DNA from: a virus
Reading direction: 5' to 3' (one strand)
Virus genome (UHGV): UHGV-0139594
Length of the DNA: 32,537 bases
The position numbers were made by a program, and so were the translations under genes. Under the pieces are notes generated by a model. That model was not told the origin of the DNA. It ran no database searches and worked only from the letters and a program-made list of their open reading frames with translations. Of this stretch, positions 1 to 12,756 are shown in pieces (positions within the stretch are counted from its first letter, which is position 1; every line of letters starts with the position of its first letter).

Positions 1-78
1 ACAAGGCCATTGACGCATCGCCCGGTTAGTTTTAACCTTGTCCACCGTGATTCACGTTCGTGAACATGTCCTTTCAGG

Positions 79-154
79 GCCGATATAGCTCAGTTGGTAG
101 AGCAGCGCATTCGTAATGCGAAGGTCGTAGGTTCGACTCCTATTATCGGCACCA
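79..154 (+). tRNA. thrW: tRNA-Thr (anticodon CGT), thrW-type; 76 nt with encoded CCA
   Basis: Sequence GCCGATATAGCTCAGTTGGTAGAGCAGCGCATTCGTAATGCGAAGGTCGTAGGTTCGACTCCTATTATCGGCACCA folds as a canonical cloverleaf (acceptor stem GCCGATA/TATCGGC, anticodon CGT at 112..114). Matches my recollection of enterobacterial thrW. Confidence 0.93.
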
Positions 155-168
155 TTAAAATCAATAAG

Positions 169-1332
169 TTACACATCATTAGTACCTTCCTTATTTTTTG
201 ACTGGGACAAATTTGGGACCGATGGGTTCAGGATCGAGTCTATTTGCCGTGCGTGTTCGGTAAGGTGATTAGGTGCAAGGTGAGCATATCGACGAACCAT
301 TTCGATAGACTCCCAGCCTCCCATTTCCTGTAACACTGACAACGGGACTCCGGCTTGAACCAGCCAACTTGCCCAGGTGTGTCTCAAGTCGTGAAATCTG
401 AAATCATCAATACCAGCCCGTCTCAGCGCCGCTTTCCAGGCTGTGTTTGCGTCATACCGCATCTTCCTTACTGTTGGCGCTTTCGTTCCGTCTGGTTTGG
501 TACAGCTTTCCTTGTACACAAATACCCAACGGTGATGATTCCCGATTTGTTTTTTCAATACGCGACATGCAGTATCATTCAGCGCAACGCCAATTGCGCG
601 GTTTGATTTACTCTCTTCCGGGTTTATCCATGCCACCCGGCGCTGCATATCTATTTGTTGCCATTCAAGGTTGATGATGTTCGAGCGTCTTAAGCCTGTT
701 GCCAGTGCAAATTCAACAACAGACTTTAATGGCTCCGGACATTCATCAATCAGCCTTTGTGCTTCATGGGGCTCCAGCCAGCGGATCCGTTTATTCTTTG
801 GTTGAGGCACTTTAATAATTGGTGCCTTATCCAGCATTTTCCATTCACGCTCTGCGGCTCTTAGTAGGGCCTTTATAAATGAAAGATGCGTAGCCTTCGT
901 TGCAACTGACGCTGGTTTTGGCGTGTATTCTGGAACAGGTTTCCCTTTTTTTCTGCATGCTTCTGCCCTGAGTTTCCAGTTTTCCTCATGACGCCGGTTC
1001 GTCATTTTCTGCATTGCTGAATAAATTTTTGATTCAGTAATGTCTCTTAGTTGCATTCCTGCGAAATGTTGAAGCCAGAATCCGATCCGGCTTTTGTCAT
1101 CGTCCAGCGATTTTTTATGTGCTTTCTCTTCAAGCCACCTGACACACGCTTCCTCGAACGTTATATCAGGTATTTCACCAAGTTTGCTGACCCGCCATGC
1201 TTCAGCCTTTAGCTTGTCATGGAGTTCTGTCGCCTGCCTTTTGTCCTTTGTTCCAAGAGACTGTTTAAATCTTTTACCGTTCGGCAATGTGAAACTGGCG
1301 TACCATATTTCACCTCTGCGGAAGAGTGACAT
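169..1332 (-). CDS. int: Tyrosine recombinase / phage integrase, P22 Int-like
   Basis: 387-aa ORF starting [14 protein letters not shown], with C-terminal catalytic region [15 protein letters not shown]...VRRYAHL (R-H-R-Y signature). Lies 15 bp from the tRNA 3' end and is transcribed toward it. Confidence 0.95.
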
Positions 1333-1559
1333 TTTCTTTCCTCTGTTATGCCATCACCCGCGCTCACCTGGACAGTATGCAGCGGAGACTGAAGAGCCGC
1401 AATGCAGGCTTGTCGTGTTGTGAGGTAAGGAGATTTATTCTTAGTGGGATCTTTGCGTGTTGCCTGAAGACGCCCTGTGCGTATCCAGTTAATGGCAGTC
1501 GGTCTGGATATCTTGAGAAAATGACAGGCCTCATCGAGTGTGAGGCTGTATGGCTCCAT
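1209..1559 (-). CDS. xis: Excisionase (Xis), P22-like
   Basis: Internal start [36 protein letters not shown] gives a 116-aa winged-helix excisionase-like protein. Its ATG overlaps the stop of the upstream gene (TAATG), and its 3' end overlaps int in another frame, as in lambdoid int-xis pairs. Confidence 0.75.
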
Positions 1560-1864
1560 TATTTCACCTCTTGTTGTGACATTGTTGAAAAATGGATACC
1601 TGCTCGTTGCTGCCAGACGATCCAACCGAGAGTCATATCCCATGCCATGTATTCGTTATCGCCGTTTTTTGCTCTCCGACGATCTACTAAGTCACCGAAA
1701 CGCTTTTCCATGAATAATTCATAAGCTTCGCGTTCATCTGGTTCTACTTCCAGAGATAGGAGTGCGATTTCATAAGCACGGCGCTCAATATCGTCTCGCA
1801 CGTCAAGGCTGCTGATACGCTCTTTAATTTCTTTAATCAGTTCTTTGTCGGTAAAAGTGGTCAT
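1559..1864 (-). CDS. Hypothetical early-left operon protein (acidic, 101 aa)
   Basis: ORF in translationally coupled chain (stop/start overlaps at both ends). No recognisable domain. Confidence 0.55.
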   Translation of the reverse strand: MTTFTDKELIKEIKERISSLDVRDDIERRAYEIALLSLEVEPDEREAYELFMEKRFGDLVDRRRAKNGDNEYMAWDMTLGWIVWQQRAGIHFSTMSQQEVK

Positions 1865-2226
1865 TATGCTCCAGCCTCCGGTGCTTTTGGCATTACTGCC
1901 CAGTGAGTGATATTGACGTTTTCAAGGTCCCCGACCTGAAATGTCCACTGCCATTCTCCGGTTTCTTTTTGTCCCCAGGTGTACCAGAGAGAACGCCAGC
2001 CAATTAGCCAGCCTTCTCCGTTAGCATCGAATAACAAAACACTTTCATTTGCTGGTGGCAGTTCAGTTGACACTGGTATTACTTTGTTTTCCTGTGCTGC
2101 ACATTTAGCTTCAAGCGCATCGAATTTACGCACCAGGTATTCAGCATCTGTTTCATTCACTTTCAGATCTCGCGGTACACATCTCCCACGAAGAAACCCT
2201 TCCATTTCGAAAACATTCATGCGCAT
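1864..2226 (-). CDS. Hypothetical early-left operon protein (Eaa-like, 120 aa)
   Basis: ORF coupled to downstream gene; position and size typical of lambdoid ea-region proteins. No firm domain call. Confidence 0.55.
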   Translation of the reverse strand: MRMNVFEMEGFLRGRCVPRDLKVNETDAEYLVRKFDALEAKCAAQENKVIPVSTELPPANESVLLFDANGEGWLIGWRSLWYTWGQKETGEWQWTFQVGDLENVNITHWAVMPKAPEAGA

Positions 2227-2780
2227 TTGCGTAACTCCGATAACTCGTTAAAACGTTCCATAAACATCCCGTAGGCATGGCCCGGTGCCTGTGGAATCAC
2301 TTTGAACATCTCTGTTGCCGGGATACCTTCCAGTACAGGCCAGAAAGAGCCATCATCAAGCCCGAGATCGCGGCGTTCGGTTGCCAGCATAATGAGATCG
2401 GCATATTTCACTGGCGTGCTCATAACAGGAGGTAACCCGTATTTCTCACGGATTACGGCGTCTATTTTTTCTTCCATCCGTTTATAGTCAGGAAGAAGTC
2501 GTTTCAGTGGTGCGGGGATGTCCTAGCAATATGCTTCTGTTGCATCATGCATTAAAGCTTCAAAAGCAAATTCCTGTGGCACCAGCTGGCTGCAAAGCAC
2601 CGCATGTTGGGCGACACTGTAGAAGTGTGAAAGATGTCCTGCAAAGCGACAGATATTTGAAAGGGAAACCGCGATATCGTTAATAACGATGTCGTCTTTA
2701 TTTATCCTGTCATAATAAAAATGCTTCCCGGAAAAAGTTTTAATAAATGACATTTTGTTCTCCACGTATATGCGCTGCAC
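2217..2780 (-). pseudogene. HD-domain phosphohydrolase (YfbR-like 5'-deoxynucleotidase family) interrupted by a single in-frame amber codon
   Basis: Track ORFs 2523..2780 and 2217..2477 are in the same frame, separated only by TAG at 2523..2525. Read-through translation gives ...LMHDATEAYC*DIPAPLKRLL..., reconstituting the HD...E...GDhPxPxK motif across the stop. Confidence 0.6.
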
Positions 2781-2789
2781 CGCGCTGAA

Positions 2790-3260
2790 TTCGGGTAAAA
2801 GGAAGCCCTCACCGTCCGGCGATTATTGAGTCAATTACATTTCCATAAATGCCCCCGTAGGGGCGGTTAGTTTCTCCACAAAACAGAGAAGAACACCTGC
2901 GGTGGCAGCCGCCCGGATGGATTGGGTTATGAGCCCGTCGTCCGGTGATGCTCTTCTCTGTTTTGTAAAAAGGACGGTACCAGCCGGAAGCAAGGGTACA
3001 AGCTGGTACCGCCAAGACTACACACAGCATAAAGTTGTGGTGCCGGGTGCCTCCCGGTGCCTGGCGAAGGTTGCACACCAGGCGGGTGGGTATCCACAGA
3101 AGGTCGACTGTCAGCCTCAACCTTAACCCGCGTGCGCTGAGCCGCATTCACCACAACGCTAAGGATTCTCTCTGGTTGAAAATACTTAGCTGTTATGTGC
3201 CTGTCTTTTCACCACTTCAGGCTCGGTGGTATCCTTTTAAGCCCGTATACATAAAAGGAA
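2790..3260. other. GC-rich, ORF-poor segment with nested inverted repeats; candidate structured RNA or degraded insert
   Basis: No convincing ORF; several overlapping junk ORFs in multiple frames. Long-range complementary segments: ACAAAACAGAGAAGA/TCTTCTCTGTTTTGT, GGTACCAGC/GCTGGTACC, GTTGTGGTG/CACCACAAC, CCCCGTAGGGG. Confidence 0.25.
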
Positions 3261-3266
3261 AATCAA

Positions 3267-3512
3267 ATGACTTTTGATGAAAAAGAACTTGATAATGCAA
3301 TTAATAAAATCATCGTAACGTCGCTCTTTTCCTGTCTCAGCGACACTCAGCAAAAACAGTTCTACGAATCGGCTTTCAACATGATCGAGCGTTGTTGTTT
3401 CTGCGATGCCGACGAGTTACCTGAAAAAATCAGGAAACAGTTGGCTGATGCTCTTCGAGTGCGACTTTCTGACCAATTTTCTGAAATGTACTCTCCGAAT
3501 TTGGACAAATAG
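3267..3512 (+). CDS. Hypothetical protein (81 aa)
   Basis: ORF with AAGGAA-type RBS upstream of ATG. Plus-strand gene inside an otherwise minus-strand early-left region. Confidence 0.45.
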   Translation: MTFDEKELDNAINKIIVTSLFSCLSDTQQKQFYESAFNMIERCCFCDADELPEKIRKQLADALRVRLSDQFSEMYSPNLDK

Positions 3513-3705
3513 AAAAAGGCCATTTCCATTCAGGGTCTGATGGAAAGACTTCAGCCTGTTCTAAAGCACGGCGTAAAGAGAACACAACTCCAGCCATAAT
3601 CTGATGTTTCCCATTGGTCCAGCTATCGCCGCTCTGATCTACAGGAGCGGCTATGTCGTATGACCAAACGACTTCACCACTATTGTTTAAAATCTGGACT
3701 TTCAT
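3430..3705 (-). CDS. Hypothetical protein (91 aa)
   Basis: ORF downstream of the zinc-finger gene in the leftward operon. Its 3' end overlaps the convergent 3267..3512 ORF, so true extent is uncertain. Confidence 0.35.
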   Translation of the reverse strand: MKVQILNNSGEVVWSYDIAAPVDQSGDSWTNGKHQIMAGVVFSLRRALEQAEVFPSDPEWKWPFSICPNSESTFQKIGQKVALEEHQPTVS

Positions 3706-3713
3706 TTTGTTCT

Positions 3714-3917
3714 TTAACCTCCAGATTTCCGCGCATCTAAAGGCGCATTCTCATTTGGTGTGAACTGAATAGTTGTGCTGATATTGATTAATGCCCCGAC
3801 ACACAAGACTACGCACTCAGAGCAGATAGCAACTTCATCTTTTCCGCCTTTGGCGATGATTTTTTTTGCCTGCAGCTCGTTTGCGCCACAAAACGAGCAT
3901 GTGAAATAACGGTTCAT
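3714..3917 (-). CDS. Small ClpX-type C4 zinc-finger protein (first gene of leftward early operon)
   Basis: MNRYFTCSFCGANELQAKKIIAKGGKDEVAICSECVVLC resembles the ClpX N-terminal zinc-binding domain (CxxC...CxxC). Start chosen at the second ATG, which has an AAGAGAG RBS. Confidence 0.55.
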   Translation of the reverse strand: MNRYFTCSFCGANELQAKKIIAKGGKDEVAICSECVVLCVGALINISTTIQFTPNENAPLDARKSGG

Positions 3918-4004
3918 TTGCGCTCTCTTACACATAGTATTTAACGAATCATCCGGTCATTCATACGCCACCGGCGGCTACTTCGTGGGCGTCCTGCCTG
4001 TTCG

Positions 4005-4080
4005 TTGTTTTAACACCTTTAAGTTGTAATTTAGTTGTGGTTTTGAATGTTGTCAACAACTTTATGTGGTTTGAACGAGT
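4005..4080. promoter_or_regulatory. OL-like operator/promoter region (divergent promoters)
   Basis: Contains motif blocks CACCTTTAAGTTGT, AGTTGT, ATGTTGT and ACAACTTTATGT that recur, rearranged, in the cI-cro intergenic region. Confidence 0.45.
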
Positions 4081-4119
4081 AGCCAAGGAGTGCAAGGATT
4101 ATCAAAAAAAGGAGGTTGT

Positions 4120-5010
4120 ATGGAAGACGCGCTTTACGCTTTTAATTACACACAGAACCGGGACAAGTTATTTGCTAACTTGATTAGCATCATTGATGGA
4201 ATCATTGCAGATGGAGTTGTCCGTGAAGAGGAGGTTCTTTACTTAGATACATGGTTACTTGAAGCAAAGCAGATTATCAATAATGGAGTTATAAAAAGTC
4301 TATCAGCACGGGTGTCGGATATTCTTGCGGATGGAATAATCACATCAGAAGAACGTGATGACCTTAAAAATAGCCTTCTCCAAATACAGAGGGAAATTCT
4401 TGATATCCCTGAAATTGATTTTTACTCCAAGGATGTAGATGTCCATTTACTTAATGGACTATGTAAAGGATTAATTGCTGATCGGAACTTAACTCAAGAA
4501 GAAATAAGATATCTTAATTGGTGGCTTGAGCAAAATGGAGCTTTGAAGAACAACTACCCAGGAAAAAAACTTTATGCACTTGTAAAGGAAATTCTTAAAG
4601 ATGGTGTTATTACTGAAGATGAGAGTTTAACTCTACATAAGGCATTAGTAGACTTCACAGGATGTGACTTGGAAAGTGGGGTGGTGGATGGTTTGGCGAC
4701 CAGGCTGCCTATTGATGTAGGGGCTTCGATAGAGTTAGAGGGTAAAACCTATTGTCTTACAGGCACTTTTGTTGCAGGAAAGAGAGCCGTAGTTGAAAAT
4801 TTGATTAAAAATGCTGGTGGGAACATCAGTAGTGGAATTACTCAAAAGTTGGATTTTTTAGTAATTGGGACGCTTTCCTCCCGTGATTGGAAATTCTCAA
4901 GTCACGGAAGGAAGATCGAAAAGGCTATATCTTATAGGGATGATAATGGTGCAAAACTTAAAATTATTTCTGAAGAAATGCTTTTCGATGCATTACCAAG
5001 TTCGCGATGA
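4120..5010 (+). CDS. Accessory protein with four tandem TerB-like (ADG...EE) helical repeats and a C-terminal BRCT domain
   Basis: GGAGG RBS 4 nt before ATG 4120. Repeats IADGVVREEEVLYLDTWLL, LADGIITSEERDDLKNSLL, IADRNLTQEEIRYLNWWLE, LKDGVITEDESLTLHKALV. C-terminus GKTYCLTGTF...GKRAVVENLIKNAGGNISSGITQKLDFLVIG resembles the LigA-type BRCT domain. Confidence 0.8.
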   Translation: MEDALYAFNYTQNRDKLFANLISIIDGIIADGVVREEEVLYLDTWLLEAKQIINNGVIKSLSARVSDILADGIITSEERDDLKNSLLQIQREILDIPEIDFYSKDVDVHLLNGLCKGLIADRNLTQEEIRYLNWWLEQNGALKNNYPGKKLYALVKEILKDGVITEDESLTLHKALVDFTGCDLESGVVDGLATRLPIDVGASIELEGKTYCLTGTFVAGKRAVVENLIKNAGGNISSGITQKLDFLVIGTLSSRDWKFSSHGRKIEKAISYRDDNGAKLKIISEEMLFDALPSSR

Positions 5011-5679
5011 CCAGAATACCCTACCTATAACATGAATTCTGGCTCGTCTATCTTCAAAGGTGAGTATTTCATCTGGGTACTCATCTTTGTTGAAGCTTCT
5101 AAGAATCAAGCCACCGTCAGGTAAGTTGATAAGTATTTTAACCCTTAGCAATACACCATCTCGTACGGCATAAAGATCGCCATCACGAATAGGAACGGTT
5201 TGAGAAATATCAACGGCAACAAGATCTCCATTATTGAGAACCGGTAATAAACTGTTCCCCCATATTTTTACGATCTTGGCATTAGATGCACATACGCCAG
5301 ATTTTCTCAAATCTGCTCTTCTTAATGGAAACCAGTCAATAGCTGATTCAACTATTTCAGCCAGACATCCGTTACCTGCCGATAACTCGACATCTAAAAC
5401 AGGAATGTTTACGAAAATATCGGGGTCTAATGCGGTGCTTTCTGCTTCTTTTACAACAAGATCAGGTATGGATGCGTTGTCTTCAATACCAAGTTGTAAC
5501 CACTTTTGTGATACACCTAAAACTTTTGCAATTTCTTTAATTTTGCGCGGTTGTAGAGTTTCGCCATTCTCTATTTTGGCTACAGATTGTTGTGAAAGTC
5601 CAATTTTTTCAGCTAGTTGAGCTTGGCTCATGCCAGCTTTCTCTCTACCTATCTTTAATCGTTCTGCCAGTGTTTTCAC
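4993..5679 (-). CDS. cI: CI-like prophage repressor (XRE-type HTH + S24 LexA-like peptidase domain)
   Basis: N-terminal HTH (MSQAQLAEKIGLSQQSVAKIENGE) and C-terminal S24 autopeptidase-like region. Divergent from the cro-like gene across an operator-rich intergenic region. Confidence 0.88.
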   Translation of the reverse strand: MKTLAERLKIGREKAGMSQAQLAEKIGLSQQSVAKIENGETLQPRKIKEIAKVLGVSQKWLQLGIEDNASIPDLVVKEAESTALDPDIFVNIPVLDVELSAGNGCLAEIVESAIDWFPLRRADLRKSGVCASNAKIVKIWGNSLLPVLNNGDLVAVDISQTVPIRDGDLYAVRDGVLLRVKILINLPDGGLILRSFNKDEYPDEILTFEDRRARIHVIGRVFWSSRTW

Positions 5680-5689
5680 AACATATCCC

Positions 5690-5805
5690 TCTCTTTTTTG
5701 ATGAGGTTACAACTTTATGTTTTAGCTTTCCAACACCTAAAAGTTGTGATAAAAGTTGTTAATGTTGTATTCTTGCAACTCGTAACAACTTAACTACCTA
5801 AAAAG
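5690..5805. promoter_or_regulatory. OR-like operator/promoter region between cI and cro
   Basis: Repeated half-site-like motifs ACAACTTTATGT, CACCTAAAAGTTGT, AAGTTGT, ATGTTGT, CAACTCGTAACAACTT. Confidence 0.5.
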
Positions 5806-5814
5806 GAGAAAGCT

Positions 5815-6063
5815 ATGACACCTGAGCAATTAGCCTTATCGGAGGCAATCGCTCTGGCTGGTGGTCAATCAGAATTGGCTCGGAAGCTCACAGCCAGCAG
5901 CGGTCATTTAGTAAAGCAACAACATGTCTGGAACTGGTTGAACAGAGAAAAGCGTCCCCCTGCAAAGCTCTCGATATTCATTGAAAAGACCACTGGCATA
6001 TCAAAAGAAAAATTACGTCCAGATATTTTTCAAAAGATTAAAGATTCATCAGATGAAAAGTAA
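5815..6063 (+). CDS. cro: Cro-like (YdaS-like) HTH regulator
   Basis: 82-aa ORF with AAGGAG RBS, divergent from the repressor; HTH-like segment and typical position. Confidence 0.75.
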   Translation: MTPEQLALSEAIALAGGQSELARKLTASSGHLVKQQHVWNWLNREKRPPAKLSIFIEKTTGISKEKLRPDIFQKIKDSSDEK

Positions 6064-6085
6064 CCACAGTTTTAAGGAGATAGCC

Positions 6086-6637
6086 GTGGGTAAGCATCAC
6101 TGGAAAGTAGAAAAACAGCCTAAGTGGTACGTGAAAGCTGTCAGAAAAACTATCGCGGCGTTGCCGGGTGGTTACGCTGAAGCTGCTGACTGGCTGGATG
6201 TAACAGAGAACGCATTATTTAACCGCCTTCGTGCCGATGGCGATCAGATTTTCCCGCTGGGATGGGCAATGGTTTTACAGCGCGCAGCTGGCACTCACTA
6301 CATTGCGGATGCTGTCGCACAGTCTGCTGGTGGGGTGTTCGTATCGCTTCCTGAAATTGAGGAAGTAGAGAACGCCGATATAAACCAGCGCCTGCTGGAA
6401 GTCATCGAACAGATCGGGAGTTACTCAAAGCAGATTCGTTCGGCAATCGAAGATGGGGTAGTGGAGCCACACGAGCAGACAGCAATTAACGACGAGCTGT
6501 ATCTCTCAATTTCGAAGCTGCAGGAGCATGCAGCACTGGTCTACAAAATCTTTTGCATTTCAGAAAGTAATGACGCCCGCGAGTGTGCAGCTCCGGGCGC
6601 CGTGGCGTGTCGTGACTGTGGAGAAACTAACGCATGA
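6086..6637 (+). CDS. CII-like regulatory protein (phage 186 CII / CP76 family-like)
   Basis: Directly after cro. GTG at 6086 has an AAGGAG RBS; ATG at 6053 is an alternative start. Family call is weak recollection only. Confidence 0.55.
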
Positions 6638-6992
6638 ACAGTTTAACAACACACTACCGTCGCTCGCAACTGATTGCGCTTCCTGTACCGGGTGGAAAAG
6701 CGAAGGTGGAGTATTGCTATGCAGTTAATGTACCTGGTGACAGGGAAATTGTAACCCACAGCTTTGCTGAGTGGGCTGTGGGTGATTTCAACCGGCAGAA
6801 GGAGACAGTCCTTTGCGACAAGTTAACCGCTGGTTCAAAGATCACTACGGAGTGCCCGTCAGAGTCATTCGTTGGGAGCCGGAAACACAACGAGTTATCT
6901 ACCTCCGCGAAGGCTATGAGCATGAGTGCTTCAGCCCGCTCGAACAGTTTCGTCGTAAATTCAGGGAAATAGAGGTCGGTCATGAGCACTAA
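6634..6992 (+). pseudogene. Hypothetical protein with apparent frameshift (two frames needed for a protein-like product)
   Basis: Frame of ORF 6634..6972 is protein-like to about residue 59, then turns into a Ser-rich tail. The -1 frame from about 6786 to its stop at 6990..6992 reads [61 protein letters not shown]-run at about 6811..6815 is the likely shift site. Confidence 0.5.
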
Positions 6993-11616: not shown

Positions 11617-12195
11617 ATGATTAATCCTTCTGAAATTGGCAAAACGGGTGAAATGGTTCGTCTTCGTACTCTGGAAAGTATCTGGGTTCAGGGTAAGCTC
11701 CGCATGTGGGGACGCTGGTCTTATATCGGCGGTGGTAGTGGTGGGAACATGTTTAACCAGCTACTGGCATCTGGAAAAATTACCAAAACGGCAATTAAAG
11801 AAGCGCTACGCCGGATGAAAAAAGCGGGTATCAGCAAACCAGAGCTGGAAGCGTTTTTCAAAGAGATTCAGGAAGGGCAGAATAAAAGCGGTCTGGCGTT
11901 CTGTACCGATGAGGAAGCGCTGACCATCAACGCTGTACTCAGCGATGTCCTTGTGCAGTCAGGACATAAGAATTTATACGCTCTTATTGAAGATCGTTAT
12001 ATCAAACGCCTTAGCAAAAAGGCAATGGCAAGAGACCTAAATAAAAAGCATCCTGAATGGTGTTTGCGAACCTGTGAAAGCCGGATTGATGTTTGGCTAA
12101 ATGTAGCAGAATCGATGCTATACAAGCCAATGTGTGATGCATTTGGCACAAATGGCGACAGATTCCGCTTGAATAGTTGCGCGGAAAGTGCTTGA
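11617..12195 (+). CDS. Putative late-gene antiterminator (Q-like) by position
   Basis: Last gene before a strong intrinsic terminator and the lysis cassette; no confident family assignment. Confidence 0.45.
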   Translation: MINPSEIGKTGEMVRLRTLESIWVQGKLRMWGRWSYIGGGSGGNMFNQLLASGKITKTAIKEALRRMKKAGISKPELEAFFKEIQEGQNKSGLAFCTDEEALTINAVLSDVLVQSGHKNLYALIEDRYIKRLSKKAMARDLNKKHPEWCLRTCESRIDVWLNVAESMLYKPMCDAFGTNGDRFRLNSCAESA

Positions 12196-12276: not shown

Positions 12277-12756
12277 CTAGAGCAGACCTATAGCGCCACC
12301 GGCAATAGCAGTAAGTAAAGGATGTTCTGCTAACTTTCTTAGCAGCCCCTTTGCTTCTTCTTTCTGCTGTGGCGTACCCTGAGAGCTATTTATTAAGTTA
12401 TTCAGCGTCTCGATGCTATTGGTAATCTCCTGACGGTTATGATCTCCAATCTGTACATTCCCTCCGTGAATGTTGATTTGCTGAGAAGAAATAGTTGGTT
12501 GTATCTTTTTGGGGCCAACCTTGAGTTGGAAGTGTGGGCCAAAACCGCCAATGCTAGTGTCGTAAAAATTAGCTTTATAAATTTCTTTATGTTCTTCCTT
12601 ACCGTTTGGAAGGAGTCGAACAACAGTATCCCCGTCATCGATGTCGGCCATTTGGTCGTTTACGATAATTGTATCACCTGCAAACTTGGCCTTATACGGG
12701 CCGCATCTGCTGCCATCACGTTTTAAGATGTAGGCATCGTCTTTAGCTGTAAACAT
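12277..12756 (-). CDS. Moron: hypothetical 159-aa protein between Q-like gene and holin
   Basis: Opposite-strand ORF in the Q-S intergenic hotspot, ending at the bidirectional terminator. C-terminal hydrophobic tail LLTAIAGGAIGLL. Confidence 0.6.
   Translation of the reverse strand: MFTAKDDAYILKRDGSRCGPYKAKFAGDTIIVNDQMADIDDGDTVVRLLPNGKEEHKEIYKANFYDTSIGGFGPHFQLKVGPKKIQPTISSQQINIHGGNVQIGDHNRQEITNSIETLNNLINSSQGTPQQKEEAKGLLRKLAEHPLLTAIAGGAIGLL

Follow-up and report, generated by a model that had tools for sequence, protein, structure and literature searches.

The 32,537-nucleotide (nt) virus genome UHGV-0139594 (hereafter the window, meaning the whole stretch of DNA that was analysed) is a lambdoid prophage of the SfII/SfV/CPS-53 type, inserted at tRNA-Thr(CGU) 79-154 (thrW), and the subject of this report is a GC-rich segment at positions 2,790 to 3,260 of its early-left (pL) operon. 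The segment is made up of two folded RNA modules and two terminators, and the RNAs are read from the minus strand, which is also the sense strand of the pL operon. In module A we recognise a divergent member of the known prophage RNA family STnc100/PasD, one that scores below threshold and has an unusual operon position. Module B is a three-way junction with an arm like that of initiator tRNA, for which no described counterpart was found and which matches no Rfam family. The strand, the fold, the family resemblance, the coupling to a terminator, the non-coding status and the operon position are all matters of direct observation here, and the early-left STnc100 subtype, its pseudoknot and the tRNA-like junction appear to be undescribed.

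Composition and folding of the segment

In the direction of leftward transcription, the four parts of the segment are as follows.

3034-3157, minus strand: core of module A, a pseudoknotted fold of the STnc100/PasD family, ~124 nt
2967-3011, minus strand: T1, an intrinsic terminator with stem 3011-3002 / 2984-2975 (GGTACCAGC/GCTGGTACC) and U tract UCCUUUUU at 2974-2967
2878-2966, minus strand: module B, a three-way junction downstream of T1
2851-2865, terminator-like on both strands: T2, a GC hairpin (GCCCC-UAC-GGGGC) given a plus-strand call by a consensus scan

An original prediction, made from the letters of the DNA alone, had described the segment as GC-richer than its neighbours, free of convincing open reading frames (ORFs) and marked by three long-range inverted repeats, a pattern it considered more typical of a structured RNA or a degraded foreign insert than of a promoter region. 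The compositional difference is clear: GC content in 200-nt intervals over 2801-3200 is 0.535, 0.590 and 0.560, compared with 0.405-0.46 in the left flank and 0.385-0.44 in the right. All three inverted repeats were found again at the positions predicted, and the longest of them, 2878-2902 / 2942-2966, has a perfect 15-nt core that extends to 25 nt at 84% complementarity. The other two, 2975-2984 / 3002-3011 (10 nt) and 3034-3042 / 3149-3157 (9 nt), have no mismatch. A perfect 15-mer inverted repeat is expected by chance about 1e-4 times in 470 nt (470^2/2/4^15), while the 9- and 10-mers are borderline by themselves (~0.4 expected by chance), and all three repeats are helices that covary in relatives.

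The minus-strand RNA from 3200 to 2840 (361 nt) folds with -162 kcal/mol, a z score of -7.9 against dinucleotide shuffles, compared with -4.3 for the plus strand in the same kind of test. G-U pairs are conserved in helices P2 and P4 of module A and in the stem of module B, and these pairs identify the minus strand as that of the RNA. The prediction of a structured RNA is thus upheld by a covariance-model match to STnc100, by compensatory changes in every helix that had been spotted and by coding tests that failed on both strands. The Rfam scan and covariation check it had proposed were run, and they gave a full-length STnc100 match below threshold and covariation in P1, P2, P4 and module B. 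It was also right that the segment is neither tmRNA nor RNase P RNA, since ARAGORN and Rfam find neither, and that it is no retron, as the neighbouring ORFs contain no reverse-transcriptase domain (their domains are zf-ClpX, BRCT, helix-turn-helix (HTH)/S24, DUF551, or none). It erred in treating the segment as a single element, which is instead two separate RNA modules with two terminators, and it had assigned no strand. The suggestion of a degraded foreign insert finds no support, the segment being preserved as a unit in SfV, SfII, ST64B, phiNP, phiES15 and many prophages. Of the 5426 complete genomes of E. coli, 2788 contain a match to some part of the element or more, and in 678 the match covers at least 80% of it.

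Module A, an STnc100-like core coupled to a terminator

A permissive Rfam scan (a 1.1-kb search) matched STnc100 (RF02076) to the minus strand at 3187-2964 with 43.4 bits and an E value of 7.4e-8, the gathering threshold of the family being 47 bits. The match covers model positions 1-206 without truncation and so runs end to end, with the 3' terminator hairpin included. Its elements, all on the minus strand, are listed from 5' to 3'.

3158-3199, minus strand: hp0, an upstream hairpin (CAUAACAGCUAAG...CUUAGCGUUGUG) taken from the minimum-free-energy fold and compared by eye with ST64B and other leaders
3157-3149 / 3042-3034, minus strand: P1, the closing helix, which is the predicted 9-nt repeat GTTGTGGTG/CACCACAAC
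3152-3146, minus strand: GGUGAAU motif
3146-3129, minus strand: P2, the hairpin after the 5' strand of P1
3124-3118 with 3073-3067, minus strand: pseudoknot, AAGGUUG with the P4 loop CAACCUU
between the pseudoknot strand and P4, minus strand: P3, a variable region
3082-3076 / 3066-3060, minus strand: P4
3059-3038, minus strand: the family signature 22-mer CACCGGGAGGCACCCGGCACCA, exact
3057-3043, minus strand: P5
3012-3033, minus strand: conserved 22-nt linker UUUAUGCUGUGUGUAGUCUUGG between the core and T1

This is the order of the family, in which the 5' strand of P1 is followed by GAAU, by P2 (UNNGC loop, bulged A) and by the strand that pairs with the P4 loop, and then by the variable P3, (C)GCGG, P4, P5 (CCGGG-AGGCA-CCCGG) and the 3' strand of P1. 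In the window, helices P1, P2, P4 and P5 are all paired. The window's P2 differs in sequence (GCGGC...GC-CGC, compared with the canonical CCCCC...GG-GGG) and is kept by compensatory swaps of G-C and C-G.

When 23 distinct cores were compared (the variable P3 being removed for the pair counts), 89.7% of cells were paired, compared with 77% in shuffled controls and 41-47% when the partners are slid against each other, the covariation scores being 0.370 versus 0.126. Double changes occur in 7/7 pairs of P4, in three pairs of P2 and in three pairs of P1, with which RNAalifold agrees. The pseudoknot shifts its register among subtypes in a MAFFT alignment and was therefore tested in an alignment-free manner, in which 21 of 36 reached p<0.05 against shuffled loops. 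Relatives form the pseudoknot with at least 10 differing pairs of strands, among them CCAGUC/GACUGG, AUCAGCG/UGCUGGU, CUGGUGU/ACACCGG and AGACUGACAAA/UUUGUCAGUCU. This feature was derived in the present analysis and perhaps lies outside Rfam's STnc100 model.

Upstream of the core, hp0 has a 3' arm that overlaps the 5' strand of P1, and by eye it is the counterpart of longer ACACAAC...GUUGUGU stems of related phages. Downstream, the linker part UGCUGUGUGUAGUCUU persists in phiNP, in phiES15 and in a number of viral contigs despite differing T1 stems, and the conserved linker may be a seed or a structural strand. T1 itself is both the 3' end of module A and the first terminator of the pL operon; its orthologues have other GC-rich stems, always followed by U5-7.

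The STnc100 family and its genomic settings

A scan of viral contigs for the 22-mer CACCGGGAGGCACCCGGCACCA gave at least 120 loci with 37 core types below 90% identity. At the gathering threshold, Rfam calls STnc100 in 10 of 14 sampled loci, and the four below it are the window-like L015, L063 and L083, and also L012 (L numbers designate surveyed loci). The loci that Rfam does call have the same P1, P2, P4, P5 and pseudoknot as the window, and they are often found in tandem, beside tRNA genes or isrI. Arrays of two or three copies by tRNA-Arg(UCU) or isrI are present in L021 (342-1038), L010 (1121-1794), L027 (7683-8235) and L023.

Coupling to a terminator is characteristic of the family, as a GC-rich hairpin with a U tract lies no more than 170 nt past the core in 100 of 111 unique cores (median 48 nt), compared with 21 of 112 reverse complements. 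A good sigma-70 promoter abuts P1 in sixteen family cores versus 1/112 controls. In lambdoid phages of Klebsiella, a TTGAAA-N17-TAAATT promoter lies ~190 nt past Q; the core begins ~7 nt after it and extends to tR', which is the placement of lambda's short late leader transcript. In HK639, STnc100 is a stand-alone gene that lies between Q and the holin gene and is served by a promoter and a terminator of its own. By comparison, the window, SfV, SfII, ST64B, 118970_sal3 and phiES15 have the core in the early-left operon, with the repressor side on one flank and kil or yfdP on the other, and no promoter belonging to the core is recognisable there. In phiNP, the same leader position has T1 and module B, and the STnc100-like core is swapped for a domain closed by a GUUGUG/CACAAC helix. 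The leader is deleted in CPS-53 of E. coli K-12, and K-12 data are therefore inapplicable.

STnc100 is among the most often annotated small RNA (sRNA) families of enterobacteria, with no function assigned (PMC9029176). Its copies are transcribed, and one was Northern-positive in EDL933 (PMC5331693). PasD1 and PasD2, prophage sRNAs of enteropathogenic E. coli, gave Hfq-dependent Northern signals and have RIL-seq targets (PMC8550237), and a common fold of STnc100 and PasD has been reported (bioRxiv 10.64898/2026.05.13.724894). The relationship of the window to PasD is taken from these last two sources rather than from sequence comparison. Published STnc100/PasD copies are placed near Q, stx and lysis genes (bioRxiv 10.64898/2026.05.13.724894, among others). 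Module A shares with the described RNAs a full-length model match, an identical 22-nt signature, GGUGAAU, the helices, the pseudoknot, carriage by a prophage and a terminator after the core. It differs from them by its score of 43.4 bits (<47), by its own P2 sequence, by fusion to a second structured module and by its location in the early-left operon, ~860 nt past pL and without a recognisable promoter.

Module B, a three-way junction with an initiator-tRNA-like arm

Module B is composed of a long stem and two arms.

2966-2947 / 2897-2878, minus strand: lower stem, 20 bp, whose base is the predicted 15-nt repeat
2945-2941 / 2917-2913, minus strand: arm A, enclosing GGGCUCAUAACCC (2936-2924)
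2912-2899, minus strand: arm B

The stem grows to 25 bp (2971/2873) when the U tract of T1 pairs with a conserved GGAGA. The fold has a free energy of -51.2 kcal/mol (z = -8.3), and in 15 early-left versions of the module 94.6% of cells are paired, compared with 35-51% when slid. Nine pairs show double changes (at one stem position, 8 sequences have G-C and 7 have C-G), and one internal mismatch in the stem is conserved among the 15. Conservation of the apical arm is above that of the stems. The 13 nt of GGGCUCAUAACCC in arm A are exactly those of the anticodon stem-loop of E. coli tRNA-fMet, with the three G-C pairs included, and the tRNA-fMet sequence was confirmed in 5426/5426 E. coli genomes.

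A scan with the apical sequence gave at least 120 viral loci of 22 types, and in a genome collection the sequence occurs in 24 species, all of them Enterobacterales except for one Chryseobacterium assembly. Rfam at permissive thresholds returned chance matches only for module B (2845-2985, with no tRNA at E<=10) and for a Klebsiella tRNA-like RNA, and ARAGORN on the window and 21 related loci reported true tRNAs only, which in the window means thrW alone. A search of one literature library found no paper containing the exact core or arm-A sequences.

The Klebsiella RNA carries the same arm: it is ~70 nt long, has an acceptor-like stem of 6-7 bp followed by GCCA or ACCA, and its gene is the immediate neighbour, on the 3' side, of a late-region tRNA-Asn or tRNA-Arg. 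It was seen in L127 (3942-4010), L128 (about 4028-4100), L135, L143, L157, L167 and L176, where the stem is GGCCUG/CAGGCC, a long arm has a CUCAUAA loop, a second arm covaries, and both ARAGORN and Rfam are silent. The Klebsiella version thus has an acceptor-like stem with NCCA within a cluster of tRNA genes, whereas module B of the window is without D arm, T loop and CCA and has its 20-25 bp stem in place of the acceptor-like one. Arm A also recalls the tRNA-mimicking operators of certain mRNAs (e.g., thrS), again through the anticodon stem-loop.

Module B also resembles the RNase III processing stems of phage early operons (the lambda N leader, sib and the T7 early sites), having a near-perfect stem of 20-25 bp in an untranslated leader between early genes. 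It differs from them at the apex, where a conserved three-way junction takes the place of a simple loop.

Further tRNA-like features occur in related leaders. Those of the early-left operon in L214 (~1000-1200, minus strand), L131, L133 and L196 have repeated units of a terminator and a long ACACAAC...GUUGUGU stem, the apical inserts of which are variable, some with T-arm-like GGUUCGAUUCC hairpins. In L214, a tRNA-like insert (D-arm-like, then GUGGGUUCGAAUCCCAC and AACCACAAC), closed by GUUGUGG/CCACAAC, fills the slot of the window's STnc100-like core. From their sequences, these leaders look like arrays of tRNA-derived modules. As a separate observation, GUGGAGAA(A)C is present twice on the minus strand of the window, at 2758-2765 in the Shine-Dalgarno region of yfdR (GUGGAGAACAAAAUG) and at 2872-2879, where it lies at the 3' foot of the module B stem and pairs with the U tract of T1.

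Position in the pL operon

The location inside the early-left operon that had been predicted is borne out by the following elements.

4028-4056, minus strand: near-consensus leftward pL promoter (TTGACA-N17-TAAATT) with operator repeats on both sides
4993-5679, minus strand: repressor gene (cI), encoding HTH and peptidase S24 domains
5815-6063: cro-like gene, with operator-like repeats between it and the repressor gene

The operator-like repeats ACAACTTTATGT, AAAGTTGT, GTTGTnnnnGTTGT and AAGTTGT occur in the cI-cro intergenic region (5700-5795) and again at 4015-4075, and on this basis the promoter at 4056-4028 is taken as pL/oL and presumed to be the origin of the transcript of modules A and B. 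The segment lies ~860 nt downstream of pL, after a zf-ClpX-type ORF (3935-3714) and a 91-amino-acid (aa) ORF (3705-3430), and the genes beyond it in the operon are yfdR-yfdS-yfdT-xis-int. A Q-like antiterminator is encoded at 11617-12195, and no N-like protein was found among the phage ORFs, including those upstream of the segment.

Proposed function and alternative explanations

What the RNA does, beyond forming a terminated, structured, non-coding pL leader, we infer as follows. T1 is the first terminator downstream of pL, and transcription from pL would therefore be expected to end there in part. A partial stop would free an RNA whose 3' part is the STnc100-like domain with its U-tailed terminator hairpin. 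Such an RNA would have, by analogy, the shape of Hfq-dependent sRNAs, and it may accumulate, bind Hfq and act in trans as do its relatives, which have been shown to be stable, Hfq-associated, base-pairing sRNAs. Transcription that reads through T1 would enter module B, the long stem of which could serve the leader of yfdP/yfdQ/yfdR ... xis, int as an insulator or as a processing site of the RNase III type. The combination of an sRNA released at T1 with a processing or insulating stem is favoured, with modest confidence, over a cis-acting switch or tRNA-mimicking decoys.

Several points weigh against the released sRNA. An Rfam scan of the whole window at the gathering threshold did not report STnc100, the default scan being silent because 43.4 bits is less than 47. 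In the comparison of cores, P5 is invariant by construction, as the search pattern contained it, and the sequences come from related prophages, such that the covariation counts are of non-independent events. A target complementary to the conserved linker was searched for inside the window and only the linker's match to itself was obtained. A consensus scan recognised no sigma-70 promoter directly upstream of the core, and expression in a lysogen is doubtful since there is no promoter of its own and pL is repressed there. In the list of non-coding RNAs (ncRNAs) of EDL933 (main text, searched by name prefix), no RNA of the names searched for lies near the equivalent thrW prophage site. Lastly, the extreme conservation of the core and pseudoknot is odd for a simple base-pairing sRNA and hints at a protein, RNA polymerase or ligand as partner.

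A rather unlikely alternative, and the main rival, is that the RNA controls elongation in cis, with the pseudoknotted core as a sensor or RNA-polymerase-binding domain that decides, in the manner of a riboswitch or of put, whether transcription stops at T1/T2. Such a switch would gate the delayed early-left genes in a phage with Q and without N. Coupling of the core to a terminator in 90% of the family, at a riboswitch-like spacing (median 48 nt), is in keeping with this possibility, as are the highly conserved unpaired nucleotides, the pseudoknot and the variable peripheral stem P3. So too is the position of the core, which in Klebsiella phages is at the start of the late promoter's transcript just past Q and is followed by tR', and which in the window precedes the first two pL terminators of a phage that encodes no N-like protein. 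In position, T1 corresponds to lambda tL1, as first terminator after the immediate-early pL genes, and is also comparable to the pR'-tR' 6S arrangement; lambda leaders are not known to have the STnc100 fold. In favour of a switch, too, the 5' arm of T1 (CGGUACCAG) resembles by eye the 3' end of the core (CGGCACCAC), which could pair alternatively with the 3' arm of T1. No anti-terminator pairing conserved across subtypes was found, however, and the alternatives noted are subtype-specific and possibly coincidental.

The put RNAs of HK022 and HK639 are the obvious comparison for a cis-acting element, being structured RNAs in the pL operon of N-less lambdoid phages, upstream of terminators, and the annotated putL-like RNA of HK639, at 126 nt, is similar in size to the core of module A. 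The put RNAs, ~70 nt long, are formed by two stem-loops next to the promoter (PMC9378689), unlike the five-helix, pseudoknotted fold of the window, and they lie just downstream of pL or pR, whereas the window core starts ~860 nt past the predicted pL start, after two ORFs. Membership in the put class was considered and rejected, as the STnc100 22-mer is not in the HK022 immunity region (<=3 mismatches) and the putL-like RNA of HK639 is unrelated by eye. This lack of likeness to either RNA counts against a put-like switch, as does the presence in HK639 of an STnc100 gene apart from its put-like RNA. Some relatives, moreover, stand alone as genes that have a promoter and a terminator to themselves, with nothing downstream to regulate, and relatives are Hfq-associated, trans-acting RNAs (PMC8550237).

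It is also conceivable, though decidedly unlikely, that both modules are descendants or mimics of tRNA, carried as cargo and excised by RNase III, RNase P or RNase E, and that they act as decoys or substitutes against host factors that target tRNAs, such as nucleases cutting the anticodon loop of initiator tRNA. VapC cleaves tRNA-fMet. The identity of GGGCUCAUAACCC in arm A to the tRNA-fMet anticodon stem-loop is compatible with this idea, as is the Klebsiella arm within a ~70-nt RNA that has an acceptor-like stem and (G/A)CCA directly after tRNA-Asn or tRNA-Arg. The T-arm-like GGUUCGAUUCC hairpins of related leaders, the tRNA-like insert of L214 in the slot of the core, the tandem STnc100 copies beside tRNA genes and the succession of P5 and the 3' strand of P1, which is the layout of a T arm and an acceptor 3' strand, point in the same direction, and stems of 20-25 bp are of RNase III substrate length. 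On the other hand, ARAGORN and the Rfam tRNA model reject all candidates, the window version is without CCA end and T loop, thirteen identical nt could be a functionless relic, and no defence or toxin partner was identified.

A bolder proposal is to be regarded as a long shot. The STnc100 fold would be more than the scaffold of a base-pairing sRNA, namely a tRNA-derived, pseudoknotted recognition domain coupled in function to the terminator after it, which would make of it a phage-specific switch, or an element binding RNA polymerase or another protein, that governs read-through of the first terminators in both early-left and late operons. The three-way junction would be an undescribed tRNA-like class whose arm A might present a decoy or a ligand to factors recognising tRNA-fMet (anticodon-loop nucleases, methionyl-tRNA synthetase, IF3 or the P site of the 30S subunit).

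A protein-coding gene, intact or decayed, is very improbable. The statement that the segment has no convincing ORF holds on both strands, whereas "ORF-free" was not literally correct: mechanical ORFs of 112 aa (2809-3147, minus strand), 75 aa (minus), 74 aa (plus) and 80 aa (plus) are present. Public records annotate hypothetical proteins or a frameshifted pseudogene, with the 112-aa ORF corresponding to SfII_35 and to a "frameshifted hypothetical protein" of PGAP, and the 74-aa plus-strand ORF matches phrog_3651 with an E value of 3e-49. The 112-aa ORF has no match in Pfam, NCBIfam or PHROGs, and the 74-aa ORF, searched in NCBIfam and PHROGs, none in NCBIfam. Against orthologues in ST64B and sal3 (77% nt identity), the 112-aa ORF shows 24 gap positions, 4-5 in-frame stops and substitutions of 14/17/15 by codon position, without third-position bias. 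In diverged orthologues the translations of both strands are similarly conserved (49% and 54% aa identity), and in distant relatives translated matches are fragmentary and switch frame, for which reasons the phrog_3651 match reflects the conserved DNA of close relatives. A decayed coding gene, which the original prediction had named as an outcome that would overturn the RNA interpretation, was looked for specifically, and the frame is not kept in diverged orthologues. Covariation keeps the RNA helices instead, and the annotated ORFs are artefacts of conserved, stop-poor, GC-rich DNA.

Equally hard to credit is a recombination scar or degraded insert consisting of two ordinary terminators and chance palindromes, for although T1 and T2 are terminator-like and the left edge at ~2853 is a deletion junction between T2 copies, this account is already contradicted by covariation (P1, P2 and P4 show compensatory changes, as do the pseudoknot and the three-way junction), and it sits poorly with fold z scores of -7.9 and -8.3, the covariance-model match to STnc100 and conservation across many Enterobacterales genera.

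Segment edges and neighbouring genes

At the left edge, the 25-nt sequence of T2 is found twice in SfV (L001 2184-2208 and 3501), with one copy between yfdQ and yfdR. The genes yfdP-yfdQ are missing from the window and SfII, in contrast to SfV, ST64B and mEp460, and the junction falls at T2 (~2853), which suggests that yfdP-yfdQ were lost by deletion between two T2 copies. The right edge is marked by a conserved block that probably lies outside the RNA.

3190-3266, plus strand: conserved block with hairpin ACCACTTCAGGCTCGGTGGT and a candidate extended -10 promoter (-35 TTTTCA, TGG TATCCT)
3267-3512, plus strand: ORF of 81 aa, a member of phrog_3311

Within this block, 46 nt (3190-3236) are 95% identical in Klebsiella phages, and in L130, L132 and L140 a plus-strand ORF always starts at a distance of 30-45 nt from the block, as does ORF 3267-3512 in the window. 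The block is tentatively read as an extended -10 promoter for that ORF; this candidate was judged by eye only and is not listed by the consensus promoter scan. ORF 3267-3512 overlaps the 91-aa minus-strand ORF 3430-3705 (phrog_3195) by ~80 nt, and its transcript would converge with that of pL. Klebsiella and Cronobacter phages have other plus-strand ORFs in the same slot.

Elsewhere in the prophage, the minus strand encodes the integrase at 169-1332. Over positions 1-6700 the window differs from E. coli ECCHD184 by one base and is otherwise identical: position 2525 is A in the window and G in ECCHD184, turning codon 77 of yfdR (5'-deoxynucleotidase, 2753-2217, minus strand) into TAG (2523-2525) and thereby breaking the gene into separate ORFs at 2523-2780 and 2217-2477. 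On the plus strand, an ORF of 306 aa (4090-5010) has a BRCT domain at its C terminus. It is located between cI and pL, opposite to them in strand, and runs over the 3' end of cI; among the candidate defence families of PADLOC it matches PDC-S48 weakly (E 2.7e-7). It may be an accessory or defence gene expressed in the lysogen. A further ORF of 159 aa (12277-12756, minus strand), with no Pfam match, is located between the Q-like and holin genes with a terminator on each side, in a slot that many lambdoid phages fill with STnc100 or tRNA genes.

Implications for prophage RNA families

The STnc100 family extends below the Rfam threshold into the early-left operons of SfV/SfII/ST64B-type phages and, with them, into about half of complete E. 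coli genomes. Its pseudoknot, backed by covariation, and its near-constant coupling to a terminator narrow the mechanisms that are worth testing. A second, unannotated tRNA-like motif, with the anticodon arm of initiator tRNA, adjoins module A and recurs inside the tRNA clusters of phages. The hypothetical proteins and frameshifted pseudogenes now annotated in the region should be replaced by ncRNA features.

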